Below are positions 34,600 to 55,192 of a stretch of 64,000 nt of DNA, in pieces; position 1 is the first letter of the stretch; each line of letters begins with the position of its first letter. Source of the stretch: Escherichia coli (GTDB taxonomy: Bacteria; Pseudomonadota; Gammaproteobacteria; Enterobacterales; Enterobacteriaceae); assembly GCF_022846255.1 (NCBI RefSeq), contig NZ_AP025682.1; one strand, 5' to 3'. The notes beneath the pieces were generated by a model. That model did no database searches. It was not told where the DNA came from and saw only the letters and a program-made list of their open reading frames with translations. The translations under genes and the position numbers were made by a program.

Positions 34600-35490
34600 T
34601 TGGATTTACGCGATCTGAAAACCTTCCTGCATCTGGCGGAAAGCCGCCATTTTGGCCGCAGCGCGCGGGCAATGCACGTTAGCCCGTCTACGCTTTCGCG
34701 ACAAATACAGCGCCTGGAAGACGATCTCGGTCAGCCGCTGTTTGTGCGTGATAACCGCACGGTAACGCTGACGGAAGCGGGCGAAGAACTGCGCGTTTTC
34801 GCCCAGCAAACGCTGTTGCAGTATCAGCAACTGCGCCACACCATCGATCAGCAAGGGCCGTCGCTCTCTGGCGAATTACATATCTTCTGCTCGGTGACCG
34901 CTGCCTACAGCCATCTGCCGCCGATTCTCGATCGCTTCCGCGCGGAACACCCGTCGGTGGAGATTAAACTCACGACTGGTGATGCGGCAGATGCGATGGA
35001 AAAGGTCGTCACTGGCGAAGCGGATCTGGCGATTGCCGGGAAACCGGAGACTCTGCCCGGCGCAGTGGCATTTTCGATGCTGGAGAATCTGGCAGTAGTG
35101 CTGATTGCCCCCGCGCTACCCTGCCCGGTGCGTAACCAAGTTTCGGCAGAGAAGCCGGACTGGTCTACAGTGCCGTTTATCATGGCCGATCAGGGACCGG
35201 TGCGCCGGCGCATTGAACTGTGGTTTCGACGCAACAAAATCAGCAACCCGATGATTTACGCCACGGTCGGCGGGCATGAAGCGATGGTGTCGATGGTAGC
35301 GCTCGGCTGTGGCGTGGCATTGTTGCCGGAAGTGGTGCTGGAAAACAGCCCGGAACCGGTGCGTAACCGCGTGATGATTTTAGAGCGCAGTGATGAAAAA
35401 ACGCCGTTTGAGCTGGGCGTGTGCGTACAAAAAAAGCGGCTTCATGAGCCGCTGATTGAGGCGTTCTGGAAGATTTTGCCGAACCACTAA
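34600..35490 (+). CDS. ilvY: LysR-family transcriptional activator of ilvC
   Basis: ORF 34516..35490; recalled IlvY begins [19 protein letters not shown], which aligns with a TTG at 34600; N-terminal HTH; start uncertain (in-frame ATG at 34516). Confidence 0.8.
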
Positions 35491-51748: not shown

Positions 51749-53176
51749 ATGAGCGATAAAAAGAAGCGCAGTATGGCGGGTTTGCCGTGGATCGCGGCGA
51801 TGGCCTTCTTCATGCAGGCACTTGATGCCACTATTCTGAATACCGCCTTACCCGCAATCGCTCATAGCCTTAATCGTTCTCCTCTCGCGATGCAATCAGC
51901 CATCATCAGTTATACGCTGACGGTGGCGATGCTTATTCCGGTAAGCGGATGGCTAGCCGATCGCTTCGGTACGCGTCGCATATTTACCCTTGCCGTGAGT
52001 CTGTTCACGTTGGGTTCTCTGGCCTGCGCACTTTCTAACTCGCTACCACAGCTGGTTGTCTTCCGGGTTATTCAGGGGATAGGCGGCGCAATGATGATGC
52101 CTGTTGCTCGGCTGGCCTTACTGCGCGCTTATCCTCGTAATGAGCTTCTTCCTGTATTGAATTTTGTCGCCATGCCGGGTCTGGTGGGGCCAATTTTAGG
52201 CCCCGTTCTTGGCGGCGTGCTGGTCACCTGGGCAACCTGGCACTGGATATTTTTAATCAATATCCCCATAGGTATTGCGGGCCTTCTTTACGCGCACAAA
52301 CATATGCCCAATTTCACCACCGCACGACGCAGATTCGATACCACTGGCTTTTTGCTGTTTGGCCTCAGCCTTGTTCTCTTCTCAAGCGGAATAGAGCTAT
52401 TCGGGGAAAAGATTGTCGCCAGCTGGATTGCCTTGACGGTAATTGTCACCAGCATCGGGTTACTGCTTCTCTATATTCTCCATGCGCGACGCACGCCAAA
52501 CCCATTAATTTCATTAGATTTATTTAAAACCCGCACTTTCTCGATCGGTATCGTAGGCAATATTGCAACCCGTCTGGGGACCGGCTGTGTACCGTTCCTT
52601 ATGCCATTGATGTTACAGGTAGGATTTGGGTATCAGGCGTTTATTGCTGGCTGTATGATGGCACCGACAGCGTTAGGTTCCATTATTGCAAAATCGATGG
52701 TTACCCAAGTCTTACGTCGTCTGGGCTATCGCCATACGTTAGTGGGGATCACGGTGATTATAGGGCTAATGATCGCTCAGTTCTCTTTGCAATCACCAGC
52801 AATGGCGATATGGATGCTGATCTTGCCGTTGTTTATATTAGGGATGGCTATGTCGACACAATTTACCGCGATGAATACCATCACACTTGCCGATCTGACC
52901 GATGACAACGCCAGCAGCGGTAACAGTGTTCTGGCGGTCACGCAGCAACTGTCGATCAGTTTAGGCGTTGCTGTAAGTGCGGCAGTCCTTCGCGTTTACG
53001 AAGGGATGGAAGGCACAACGACAGTCGAACAGTTCCACTATACGTTTATCACGATGGGCATTATTACTGTTGCTTCAGCAGCAATGTTCATGCTACTGAA
53101 AACAACCGATGGTAATAATTTGATCAAAAGACAGCGTAAATCTAAGCCGAACCACGCTCCATCAGAATCGGAGTAA
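51749..53176 (+). CDS. hsrA: MFS transporter HsrA (YieO), 14-TM drug-efflux-like
   Basis: 475-aa hydrophobic ORF; matches HsrA; 3' end overlaps rbsR 3' end. Confidence 0.9.
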
Positions 53177-54134
53177 GTTGTAATCGTTGTTGCTGTAGGG
53201 CCGGCTGGGTTATCCGATGGATGAGTACATCAATCGCCAGCTCCCCCAGTTCATCTTTCGGTTGGTGGATAGTTGTTAATGGTGGCGTCATAAAGCTTGC
53301 CAGTTCGATATCGTCATAGCCAATCACCGCGATATCCTGCGGAACCTGTAACTCTGCCTGATATAACGCCTGGTAAACGCCAACAGCCATAGCGTCATTT
53401 CCGGTAAAGACAGCCTGAGGACGCAGCGGATGTGATAACAGTTGGCGCATGGCGTCAAACCCGCCGTTAAATTCAAAATCACCTGTGACTTCATAGCCAT
53501 CAGGAATGTTGAGACCCGCACGTTTCATCGCCGCCCGATAACCTTCCAACCGCAGGCGCGCCGGAGTTTTATCCAGCGGACCGGTAATACAGGCAATACG
53601 GGTATGACCTTTATCGATCAGATATTGCGTTGCTAAGTCTCCGCCCAGCAACGAGTTATCCTGAATAAGATCGCTGTCGCCATCGAACGGAGCCCAGTCC
53701 ATCATCACGGTAGGCACTGTCGGATAACGTTGCATGATTTCACGCGAAGGCTGATGCGTTTCGGTGCACAGTAACAGCAAGCCATCAACGCGTTTTTGCA
53801 TCAGCGTTTCCAGATTACGATTCATCCGCTGTTCATCGCCTTCGGTATTGCAAAGGACAAGACTATAACCGCGTTCGAAGCAGCTGCGTTCAACGCCACG
53901 CACCAGTTCTGAATAGAAAGGATTGGTACTGGCAGTGATCAACATGCCAATGGTATGTGTTTGATTGAGTTTGAGGCTACGCGCCAGAGCTGATGGCGCG
54001 TAATTGAGTTCTTTAATCGCCGCTTCAACTTTGGCTGTAATCGCTTCACTGACGAAGCGATCTTTATTGATAACGTGAGAAACTGTTGAGGTAGAAACGC
54101 CCGCCAGGCGGGCAACATCTTTCATTGTAGCCAA
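53142..54134 (-). CDS. rbsR: Ribose operon repressor (LacI family)
   Basis: 330-aa [32 protein letters not shown]... (HTH); last gene of rbs operon. Confidence 0.95.
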
Positions 54135-55067: not shown

Positions 55068-55192
55068 ATTCGGGATGTCCATAAAATGCGCCACCGTGTT
55101 AGGGTGGCGCGTGCCCTGCTTTTCTTTATATTACACGTTCATCTGTCGATGCCGTATTTATGTCACCATCAGGTCATACAACCTGATTAAAA

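Follow-up and report, generated by a model that had tools for sequence, protein, structure and literature searches.

The convergent genes hsrA and rbsR of Escherichia coli overlap by 35 bp at their 3′ ends, and our analysis favours, at a probability of about 85%, the reading that the overlap, which existing annotation already records, is of an ordinary tail-to-tail kind, was produced by 3′ extension of hsrA and is not a dedicated regulatory device. The overlap, its distribution among species, a 1-nt length difference near the hsrA stop and a signature of selection on the shared codons are direct observations.

The last codons of hsrA and rbsR are shared

We analyzed a 64,000-nucleotide stretch of E. 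coli DNA (contig NZ_AP025682.1; hereafter the window). Within it, hsrA (yieO) occupies positions 51749..53176 of the plus strand, encodes 475 aa and ends with a TAA stop at 53174–53176, and rbsR runs along the minus strand from 54134 to 53142, encodes 330 aa and ends with a TAG stop that is the reverse complement of 53142–53144; the ORF list, Pfam and RefSeq agree on both coding sequences. HsrA is a putative 14-TMS MFS transporter and RbsR a LacI-family ribose repressor, the identities of both genes resting on annotation and Pfam. HsrA matched MFS_1 over residues 17–406 (E = 2.5e-48), and RbsR matched LacI over residues 3–48 and Peripla_BP_3 over residues 170–329 of 330 (E = 3.4e-40). With these matches, and with orthologues that adjoin in 80 species, hsrA and rbsR are both genuine conserved genes.

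Direct reading of the sequence placed the convergent dual-coding overlap at 53142..53176 on both strands, comprising HsrA residues 466–475 with the stop on the plus strand and RbsR residues 321–330 with the stop on the minus strand. Each gene thus contributes 10 sense codons, its stop codon and 2 nt of the codon before, in a register in which codon position 1 lies opposite 1, position 2 opposite 3 and position 3 opposite 2. RefSeq records an identical 35-bp overlap in E. coli ATCC 11775, which is 99.5% identical to the window and in which hsrA is named “mdtD”, and in K-12 MG1655 (rbsR, 3938227..3939219; hsrA, 3939185..3940612); the hsrA/rbsR region was found at ≥95% identity in 5,417 of 5,426 E. 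coli genomes. The first-pass annotation had described a 35-bp coding overlap of the convergent pair that places the terminal ~11 codons of each gene on opposite strands of common DNA; the sequence and the ORF list bear out both statements, and the RefSeq records of the two strains agree with the overlap.

A three-frame scan of the plus strand across the rbsR stop showed that the frames reach a stop after 1, 11 and 14 codons, so an overlap of ~35 bp needs no special statistical explanation. Two of the seven convergent junctions in the window overlap, the other being ilvY/ilvA (4 bp, 35487..35490).

A frameshift probably extended hsrA

We then compared the junction in a sample of 80 Enterobacteriaceae species and mapped overlap lengths on a quick NJ gene tree. 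The two genes abut in every species (80/80), with a spacing that ranges from a 3-bp gap to a 53-bp overlap. The overlap is exactly 35 bp in 35 of the 80 species and 53 bp in five (Lelliottia/Huaxiibacter), where the RbsR stop has been lost and the protein has gained 6 aa. Most other genera have an overlap of 4 bp, Kosakonia one of 9 bp, and Kluyvera/Phytobacter a gap of 2–3 bp. The 4-bp form, in which the two stop codons interlock, occurs in Klebsiella, Raoultella, Yokenella and others. Apparent 40-bp overlaps in two genomes (L029 and L054) proved to be artefacts of tblastn alignments that had read past a stop codon, and both overlaps are really 4 bp long. The 124 bp of a third genome (L051) seems to stem from an independent frameshift or an assembly error, and this genome was excluded from the tests.

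HsrA is ~10 residues longer in the 35-bp species than in the 4-bp species, where it ends in NLIKERHK(x) directly before the stop. In the 80-species tail alignment, the derived C-terminal tail of HsrA corresponds to K466–E475 (53144..53173, plus strand). HsrA K451 and the rbsR stop are 41 nt apart in the Escherichia–Salmonella–Citrobacter group vs 42 nt in most 4-bp species, and 47 nt apart in Enterobacter vs 48 nt in a 4-bp relative. A frame scan of the window further identified a relic out-of-frame TAA at 53143..53145 on the plus strand, at which the frame starting at 53140 stops; placed in the ancestral hsrA frame, this TAA would recreate a 4-bp interlocked-stop overlap.

The 4-bp, TTAA-type interlocked-stop overlap is probably the ancestral state, with the direction of change judged from an unrooted comparison. 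The lineage or lineages of Escherichia–Salmonella–Citrobacter and Enterobacter–Leclercia–Lelliottia would then have lost a net 1 nt immediately ahead of the hsrA stop, which would have moved the hsrA reading frame onto the antisense of the final RbsR codons, where it happened to remain open for 10 more codons. On the quick NJ gene tree, the 35-bp state falls in two non-sister clades, a pattern compatible with a single origin, with two or with recombination. Judged by sequence comparison, hsrA/rbsR fits the convergent overlapping pairs of the 3′-extension type, hsrA being longer than its non-overlapping orthologues, probably through a frameshift.

The HsrA tail appears to constrain synonymous sites of rbsR

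Alignment columns that combine the third codon position of RbsR with the second of HsrA vary at 9 of 10 sites, compared with 3 of 10 for columns that combine the second position of RbsR with the third of HsrA (Fisher p = 0.02). RbsR thus appears to dominate the constraint on the overlap, and the residues concerned lie within its conserved effector-binding domain. Between K-12 and the window, two differences are synonymous in RbsR but alter HsrA, whose tail reads NRVP in K-12 (within the C-terminal SKPNRVPSESE) and NHAP in the window.

We next counted changes at RbsR four-fold sites by parsimony, with only 8–9 sites per comparison. Species with the HsrA extension showed 3.75 changes in the overlap against 8.76 upstream (MWU p = 0.0036), a reduction that was repeated in each extended clade (p = 0.004 and 0.006). 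Species that lack the extension showed no difference at these sites (9.14 in the overlap, 9.92 upstream; p = 0.82). Since synonymous sites of RbsR evolve ~2.3 times more slowly in the overlap, and do so only in extended species, the HsrA tail itself appears to be under selection; we read it as translated and under some purifying selection. The lowered synonymous change could in principle reflect a constraint at the RNA level instead.

The codon for RbsR Leu320 follows a related pattern. It is CTT or CTC in 40 of 40 extended species, which gives hsrA the stop TAA or TGA, and in non-extended species it is CTG (17), CTC (11), CTT (7) or another codon. Selection on the HsrA tail appears to have frozen several synonymous sites of RbsR, including the Leu320 CTT/CTC that supplies the hsrA stop. 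As proof of selection, the Leu320 CTT is partly circular because the 35-bp group is defined by that very stop, and a tree check revealed that whole clades retain CTT/CTC; we kept this codon as supporting evidence only.

The two transcripts overlap at the junction

Each mRNA must carry its own stop codon, so the hsrA and rbsR transcripts necessarily overlap. A consensus scan of both strands across 52600..53700 returned 0 intrinsic-terminator-like sites, a bidirectional terminator (a GC-rich hairpin with an A tract on one side and a T tract on the other) is absent at or near the junction, and the plus-strand fold at the junction is unremarkable (z = −0.57). With neither intergenic DNA nor an intrinsic terminator, each mRNA enters the other gene. 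One minus-strand hairpin stood out near the junction (53070..53096, z = −3.0), 46–72 nt past the rbsR stop on the rbsR-sense RNA. We rejected it as a terminator or 3′ stabiliser: it lacks a U tract, and its conservation does not extend beyond E. coli, since pairing is complete (10/10) in this E. coli lineage alone and falls to 8/10 in other members of Escherichia and to 2–7/10 elsewhere, with no compensatory pattern.

Published data establish the transcript overlap, the double-stranded RNA (dsRNA) and a Rho region at this locus. The rbsR–hsrA pair is among 165 convergent transcript overlaps present in ≥50% of 58 MG1655 transcriptomes (ExcludonFinder 2025, PMC12288877). On the hsrA strand, a bicyclomycin (BCM)-sensitive Rho region was reported at K-12 3938923 (−) with a Rho score of 2.78 (p = 7.6e-6), a position resolved only to within 800-nt scoring windows (Adams et al. 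2021, PMC7815308). This coordinate maps to ~53438 in the window, 262 nt beyond the hsrA stop and within antisense rbsR, which indicates that hsrA-strand transcription crosses the overlap. Our C/G scan located a C-rich, G-poor stretch on the plus strand that leads into this region (together 53300..53438), with C/G ratios of 1.35–1.73 in 78-nt windows starting at 53300–53340 (spanning 53300..53417). No primary 3′ end was mapped for hsrA or rbsR in the same data (Adams 2021, PMC7815308). A likely source of plus-strand transcription into the overlap, suggested by spacing, is the putative operon partner yieP, which encodes a GntR/FadR-family regulator (51034..51726, plus strand; ORF list and annotations) and lies 22 bp upstream of hsrA.

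From the other side, the rbs operon is transcribed towards the junction. An intrinsic terminator between rbsB and rbsK (55088..55110, minus strand; an 8-bp stem with 7 GC pairs, then ATTTT) forms the 3′ end of the RbsZ sRNA, whose gene rbsZ is annotated in K-12, and the strongest Term-seq 3′ end of the locus lies at K-12 3937278, equivalent to 55083 in the window (Adams 2021, PMC7815308). An attenuation zone follows in the 5′ part of rbsR (53974..54061, minus strand), where our scan found a hairpin (54061..54040; scan listing on the plus strand) and where a Term-seq 3′ end at K-12 3938325 (window 54036) and a Rho region at K-12 3938387 (window 53974) have been mapped (Adams 2021, PMC7815308). 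The rbsB–rbsK terminator probably stops most rbs transcription short of rbsR.

We propose that the ribosome leaves at the hsrA stop and exposes untranslated C-rich RNA, on which Rho, from a putative loading site in this stretch, would terminate transcription ~260 nt into antisense rbsR. Transcription of the rbs strand would mostly be halted earlier, at the rbsB–rbsK terminator and by Rho inside rbsR, and the remainder may read through into antisense hsrA. The first-pass annotation had held that no terminator can sit between the genes and that their transcripts must extend into each other. There is indeed no intergenic space, the 52600..53700 interval holds 0 terminator-like sites, and the ExcludonFinder listing and the Rho region past the hsrA stop confirm the extension.

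The overlapping RNAs also pair. A p19-captured 22-nt RNase III duplex with 2-nt overhangs, which we mapped by sequence to 53141..53164 on both strands, is listed for K-12 with the strands AUGGAACGCGGUUCGGCUUAGA and UAAGCCGAACCGCGUUCCAUCA and the annotation “hsrA rbsR” at 158 and 232 reads (Huang et al. 2020 mBio Table S3). The window differs from the K-12 duplex sequence at 2 bases. The potential for antisense pairing that had been noted from the sequence thus has a published counterpart in a perfectly paired RNase III product. Its abundance (1.85 and 2.72 RPM) lies near the 1-RPM reporting threshold of that study, and 3′ overlaps of convergent operons have a dsRNA read density on average 37.9-fold below that of 5′ overlaps (Huang 2020). 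Co-present hsrA and rbs RNAs would pair and be cut by RNase III at a low level. The first-pass annotation had also raised a potential for transcriptional interference between ribose catabolism and the transporter, and a potential is as far as the data go.

Alternative explanations for the overlap

Long prokaryotic overlaps are often mispredicted, and some convergent ones are sequencing frameshifts (Palleja 2008, PMC2478687), which raises the question of whether one of the annotated stops is unused and the coding overlap is an artefact. We find this scarcely credible here. The 3′ ends are independent of start-codon choice, and because the stops are unambiguous once homology fixes the frames, a start-codon artefact is ruled out. 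Moreover, 35 species whose genomes were sequenced independently have these frames and stops, 5,417/5,426 E. coli genomes contain the region, the RbsR domain model reaches residue 329 of 330, and the signature of selection indicates reading of the HsrA frame. That signature also bears on a second possibility, in which the HsrA extension is translated but neutral, its sequence dictated wholly by RbsR and of no use to HsrA. Such a passenger tail would account for variation that tracks the codon periodicity of RbsR, for the variability of 5 of the 10 tail positions among species and of the tail within E. coli through RbsR-synonymous changes, for its location outside the MFS_1 match and for its absence from many genera. 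It does not fit the RbsR four-fold sites, which are ~2.3 times slower in the overlap only where the extension exists, in two clades separately, or the hsrA stop, which is kept in 40/40 species through the rare Leu codons CTT and CTC. We regard a purely neutral tail as rather unlikely.

A functional excludon, in which transcription of the rbs operon and of yieP–hsrA would repress each other through polymerase collision and RNase III and thereby couple ribose to HsrA, draws on the transcript data. The pair belongs to the list of 165 MG1655 convergent excludons, an RNase III duplex lies inside the overlap, hsrA-strand read-through extends at least ~260 nt into rbsR, and the two genes abut in all 80 species. 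We nonetheless consider it improbable. The duplex is barely above the 1-RPM threshold, in a class of overlaps 37.9-fold poorer in dsRNA reads than 5′ overlaps (Huang 2020), and the strong rbsB–rbsK terminator together with the Rho region in 5′ rbsR implies little polymerase traffic at the junction. The length of the overlap is labile in evolution, from a 3-bp gap to +53 bp, and the literature naming both genes yielded no expression or functional experiment on the pair. We know of no functional link between ribose and HsrA; a regulatory link of this kind is hypothetical and probably weak, and meaningful cross-regulation appears to be absent. The abutting of the genes in 80/80 species could hint at selection for tight convergence and not mere tolerance. 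A version in which the junction itself was selected as a terminator-less collision and pairing site, where ribose-induced rbs read-through would down-tune yieP–hsrA or the reverse, and where the frozen RbsR synonymous sites partly reflect RNA-level constraint (dsRNA, RNase III site), is highly improbable in our judgement.

Implications of the overlap

An ordinary overlap from hsrA 3′ extension, the reading we prefer, matters little beyond bookkeeping, and the overlap is already known from the reference annotation, the published excludon list and the published table of RNase III duplexes. It does offer a natural experiment, a comparison of the same codon positions of RbsR between species that have the hsrA extension and species that lack it. 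If our reconstruction is correct, the deletion of 1 nt created a tail of ~10 codons on which purifying selection then acted and which today limits the synonymous sites of its neighbor. There is also a practical warning: a deletion, tag or recoding within the last 11 codons of hsrA or rbsR alters the other protein. Were the excludon reading true, ribose sensing would be tied to a transporter of unknown function, a link of which there is as yet no sign.

Comparison with known overlapping and convergent genes

Convergent overlapping prokaryotic genes formed by 3′-end extension were reportedly treated by Rogozin and colleagues in 2002 and by Fukuda and colleagues in 2003. As with hsrA/rbsR, members of this class are bona fide opposite-strand genes with common 3′ codons, in which a frameshift removes the stop of one gene and lets it run to the next in-frame stop inside its neighbor; the arrangement is kept in relatives and accompanied by less synonymous change in the common stretch. 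The class has been described, with frameshifts and stop mutations as the routes by which a 3′ end extends into a convergent overlap (Palleja et al. 2008, PMC2478687). At 35 bp, hsrA/rbsR exceeds the 4-bp interlocked-stop overlaps that are commonest, stays below the >60 bp at which overlaps are treated as suspect (Palleja 2008, PMC2478687), and otherwise shows no essential difference.

Three further comparisons concern transcription. The excludon concept, which is said to stem from Sesto and colleagues in 2013, denotes overlapping transcription of opposite-strand neighbors. hsrA/rbsR resembles it in that the neighbors' transcripts overlap, the pair is part of the E. coli excludome and an RNase III-cut duplex has been captured. 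Classical excludons, however, have long UTR overlaps and reciprocal expression, whereas the obligatory overlap of hsrA/rbsR is coding and its dsRNA is weak. Bidirectional intrinsic terminators between convergent genes, reportedly described by Ju and colleagues in 2019, also end convergent units, but the hsrA/rbsR junction has no A/T-flanked GC-rich hairpin. Peters and colleagues are said to have described, in 2012, how Rho suppresses antisense read-through where genes converge. The hsrA strand probably behaves in this way, the published BCM-sensitive termination lying in antisense rbsR beyond an untranslated, C-rich stretch. It is not distinctive in this respect, as the neighboring junctions asnA/viaA, ppiC, ilvC, rep and hdfR appear in the same Rho table (Adams 2021, PMC7815308).

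Finally, the window contains its own point of comparison in ilvY/ilvA (35487..35490). Like hsrA/rbsR, this pair is convergent, here a LysR-type regulator and a metabolic gene, and its stops interlock, with no terminator between the genes; on the strand antisense to ilvA, a Rho region is also reported (Adams 2021, PMC7815308). With an overlap of only 4 bp, ilvY/ilvA shares no sense codons and represents the state that was probably ancestral for hsrA/rbsR.

hsrA and rbsR share 35 bp of coding sequence at their 3′ ends

The first-pass annotation had placed a 35-bp convergent coding overlap at 53142..53176, and sequence reading together with ORF listing matched it exactly: hsrA (51749..53176, + strand) encodes 475 aa and stops with TAA at 53174-53176, and rbsR (54134..53142, − strand) encodes 330 aa and stops with TAG, the reverse complement of 53142-53144. 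The roughly 11 codons said to be shared comprise, per gene, ten sense codons plus the stop and two bases from the codon before. The window is chromosomal E. coli DNA, 99.5% identical to strain ATCC 11775 across the query, and among 5,426 complete genomes of the species 5,417 carry this region. The same 35-bp overlap is carried by the RefSeq annotations of ATCC 11775 and K-12 MG1655 (rbsR 3938227..3939219, hsrA 3939185..3940612) and is thus already in the reference annotation. Domain searches matched HsrA to MFS_1 and RbsR to LacI and Peripla_BP_3, the latter model reaching residue 329 of 330. Both are real genes, and the idea that the overlap is an annotation artefact is essentially excluded. 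On naming, the NCBI PGAP label for hsrA is “mdtD” in ATCC 11775, and E. coli genomes in their thousands list the gene as “mdtD, multidrug transporter subunit MdtD”; in K-12 it is hsrA, a putative transporter. The true mdtD is a member of the mdtABCD operon, elsewhere; the label looks like a paralogue-naming error.

The overlap probably arose by extension of HsrA

We scanned one genome per species, obtaining 80 Enterobacteriaceae loci with hsrA; rbsR was its convergent neighbor in all 80, with essentially no intergenic DNA. The overlap measured 35 bp in 35 species (Escherichia, Salmonella, Citrobacter, Intestinirhabdus, Enterobacter and Leclercia), 53 bp in five (Lelliottia, Huaxiibacter and an Enterobacter sp. 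MAG), 9 bp in Kosakonia and 4 bp in most other genera (Klebsiella, Raoultella, Yokenella, Pluralibacter, Franconibacter, Buttiauxella and others), and Kluyvera and Phytobacter had a 2–3 bp gap. Two apparent 40-bp overlaps were alignment artefacts with a real value of 4 bp. At L051 (Enterobacter sp. BIGb0383), the hsrA frame enters rbsR by 124 bp with an unrelated tail sequence, the result of another frameshift or else of misassembly, and this locus was left out of the tests. L030 (CACSKA010000004.1), labelled “Chryseobacterium sp. 18061”, holds an Enterobacteriaceae hsrA–rbsR locus that almost matches the one in Citrobacter sp. 18056 (L028); the assembly is probably mislabelled or contaminated.

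RbsR length did not vary, and species with the 35-bp overlap have an HsrA that is longer by about 10 residues. HsrA K451 lies 41 nt from the rbsR stop in Escherichia–Salmonella–Citrobacter vs 42 nt in most 4-bp species, and 47 nt in Enterobacter vs 48 nt in a 4-bp relative. With the rbsR stop as anchor, this shortening indicates that the extension came from a net loss of 1 nt immediately ahead of the old hsrA stop; the deletion would have shifted the hsrA frame into the antisense of the last RbsR codons. The old-frame TAA persists in the window at 53143-53145. Across the rbsR stop, the three + strand frames stay open for 1, 11 and 14 codons, so that any frame change at the hsrA end yields an overlap of 4, 35 or 42 bp. 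At the 53-bp loci (L032, L034, L035, L037 and L048, the last being the MAG), the RbsR TAG stop is lost and six residues are added (…RGSVSAGGDL); together with the HsrA extension, this means that each gene has grown into the other in this clade. In a quick neighbor-joining tree of HsrA and RbsR, overlap states fell by clade, with 4 bp in the deepest branches. The two 35-bp clades were not sisters, which leaves room for a single or a double origin of that state.

Both reading frames appear to bear constraint

Among the 35 species, columns at RbsR third/HsrA second positions varied in 9 of 10 cases vs 3 of 10 for RbsR second/HsrA third positions (Fisher p = 0.02), indicating that the substitution pattern tracks RbsR, whose last residues are part of its conserved domain. 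The HsrA tail tolerates replacements at about half its positions. Within E. coli it is polymorphic (window 53153..53158): K-12 has KPNRVPSESE, ATCC 11775 has KPNHVPSESE and the window a third form, NRVP having become NHAP through two RbsR-synonymous differences. Because the tail differences are RbsR-synonymous, the RbsR end (…LMERGSA) is identical in all three.

At four-fold degenerate sites of RbsR, we then reconstructed changes by parsimony and counted them, with only 8-9 sites per comparison. Values in the overlap vs upstream were 3.75 vs 8.76 in the extended species (n = 40; MWU p = 0.0036), 2.38 vs 5.64 in Escherichia–Salmonella–Citrobacter (n = 27; p = 0.004) and 1.11 vs 2.96 in Enterobacter–Leclercia–Lelliottia (n = 13; p = 0.006), whereas species without the extension gave 9.14 vs 9.92 (n = 40; p = 0.82). 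Such a reduction is what purifying selection on a second translated frame should leave behind, and the contrast between species with and without the extension speaks against the HsrA tail as a pure passenger. The frozen synonymous sites include Leu320, Thr321, Val324 and Leu325; Leu320 is CTT or CTC (hsrA stop TAA or TGA) in 40/40 extended species and mostly CTG or CTC elsewhere.

Transcripts cross the junction and occasionally pair

As anticipated from the lack of intergenic space, scanning both strands of 52600..53700 returned 0 intrinsic-terminator-like sites; no bidirectional intrinsic terminator lies at the junction, and the + strand fold across it is unremarkable (z = −0.57). A 10-bp hairpin at 53070..53096 (TTCAGCAGCA/TGCTACTGAA), within the hsrA codons for SAAMFMLLK, reached z = −3.0 on the rbsR-sense RNA in a 161-nt fold. 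Having no U tract, being fully paired in this E. coli lineage only and lacking conservation beyond E. coli, it was rejected as an element and is probably a chance structure.

Published K-12 data were mapped locally (window = 3992361 − K-12 coordinate). A bicyclomycin-sensitive Rho termination region antisense to rbsR (K-12 3938923, − strand; score 2.78, p = 7.6e-6), its position resolved only within 800-nt scoring windows, corresponds to window ~53438, 262 nt past the hsrA stop (Adams et al. 2021, PMC7815308); a C-rich, G-poor stretch (53300..53417) lies just before it. The same study places a Rho region inside hsrA (K-12 3940281, score 2.16; window ~52080, + strand, ~330 nt into the gene), which suggests that in LB hsrA is poorly translated or prematurely terminated, and lists no primary 3′ end for rbsR or hsrA. 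The strongest Term-seq 3′ end of the locus, on the rbs strand, is that of the rbsB–rbsK terminator/RbsZ sRNA (K-12 3937278, window 55083; PMC7815308), where a strong intrinsic terminator (55110..55088, − strand; GCGCCACC...GGTGGCGC then ATTTT, 3′ end ~55083) implies that rbsK–rbsR receive much less transcription than rbsDACB. Two further rbs-strand entries fall in the 5′ portion of rbsR (PMC7815308): a weak Term-seq 3′ end (K-12 3938325) and, nearby, a Rho region (K-12 3938387, Rho score 3.77). The former coincides in K-12 with a perfect 8-bp hairpin in the HTH-coding part (54040..54061), and 53974..54061 (− strand) may mark attenuation inside rbsR. On the opposite strand this hairpin is followed by CTTTATTGAT and scored as terminator-like. 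Given the rbsB–rbsK terminator and the intra-rbsR ends, rbs transcription arriving at the overlap is probably rather sparse, at least in the media of that study.

The proposal that the two transcripts extend into each other is borne out by the Rho region past the hsrA stop and by ExcludonFinder (PMC12288877), in which rbsR–hsrA belongs to a set of 165 convergent overlaps that recur in 50% or more of 58 MG1655 transcriptomes. The suggested potential for antisense pairing is likewise realized inside the overlap: a 22-nt perfectly paired, p19-captured RNase III product annotated “hsrA rbsR” (AUGGAACGCGGUUCGGCUUAGA, 158 reads, 1.85 RPM; UAAGCCGAACCGCGUUCCAUCA, 232 reads, 2.72 RPM; Huang et al. 2020, PMC7373196, Table S3) maps by sequence to 53141..53164. 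Antisense pairing does occur, yet near the 1-RPM reporting threshold; dsRNA read density at 3′ overlaps of convergent operons averages 37.9-fold below that at 5′ overlaps (PMC7373196).

Discussion

The original chain of reasoning is right, each link being logically forced or already documented. We favor, with a probability of about 0.85, a dual-coding overlap of an ordinary kind that goes back to a 1-nt deletion. The overlap would have been kept because the new HsrA tail brings a mild benefit, or at least because changing its length in either direction carries a cost; Rho would clear read-through across the junction, and incidental duplexes would be trimmed by RNase III. A functional excludon that couples ribose to HsrA could draw on the same transcript overlap and duplex, but we consider it improbable: traffic from the rbs side meets two points of attenuation ahead of the junction, the overlap has changed length repeatedly between genera, and our literature search found no experiment on a regulatory effect between the pair. 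The overlap itself is already known; only the frameshift-origin reconstruction and the contrast in RbsR synonymous change between species with and without the extension are new details.

As an oddity, the overlap is not very unusual. Among the well-characterised overlapping pairs of 338 prokaryotic genomes, ~7% were convergent, and convergent overlaps are known to originate when a frameshift or a stop mutation extends a gene at its 3′ end (Palleja et al. 2008, PMC2478687); in every property tested, hsrA–rbsR belongs with such genes. By the collinear ATCC 11775 annotation, two of the seven convergent junctions in the 64-kb window overlap. The other, ilvY (+, end 35490) and ilvA (−, end 35487), has a 4-bp interlocked-stop overlap at 35487..35490 without an intergenic terminator, the same state as that inferred to be ancestral for hsrA/rbsR, and a Rho region antisense to ilvA has been tabulated (Adams 2021, PMC7815308). 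The excludon class is defined by reciprocal expression, whereas rbsR–hsrA is listed there for transcript overlap alone; the pair behaves like many convergent junctions at which Rho suppresses antisense read-through.
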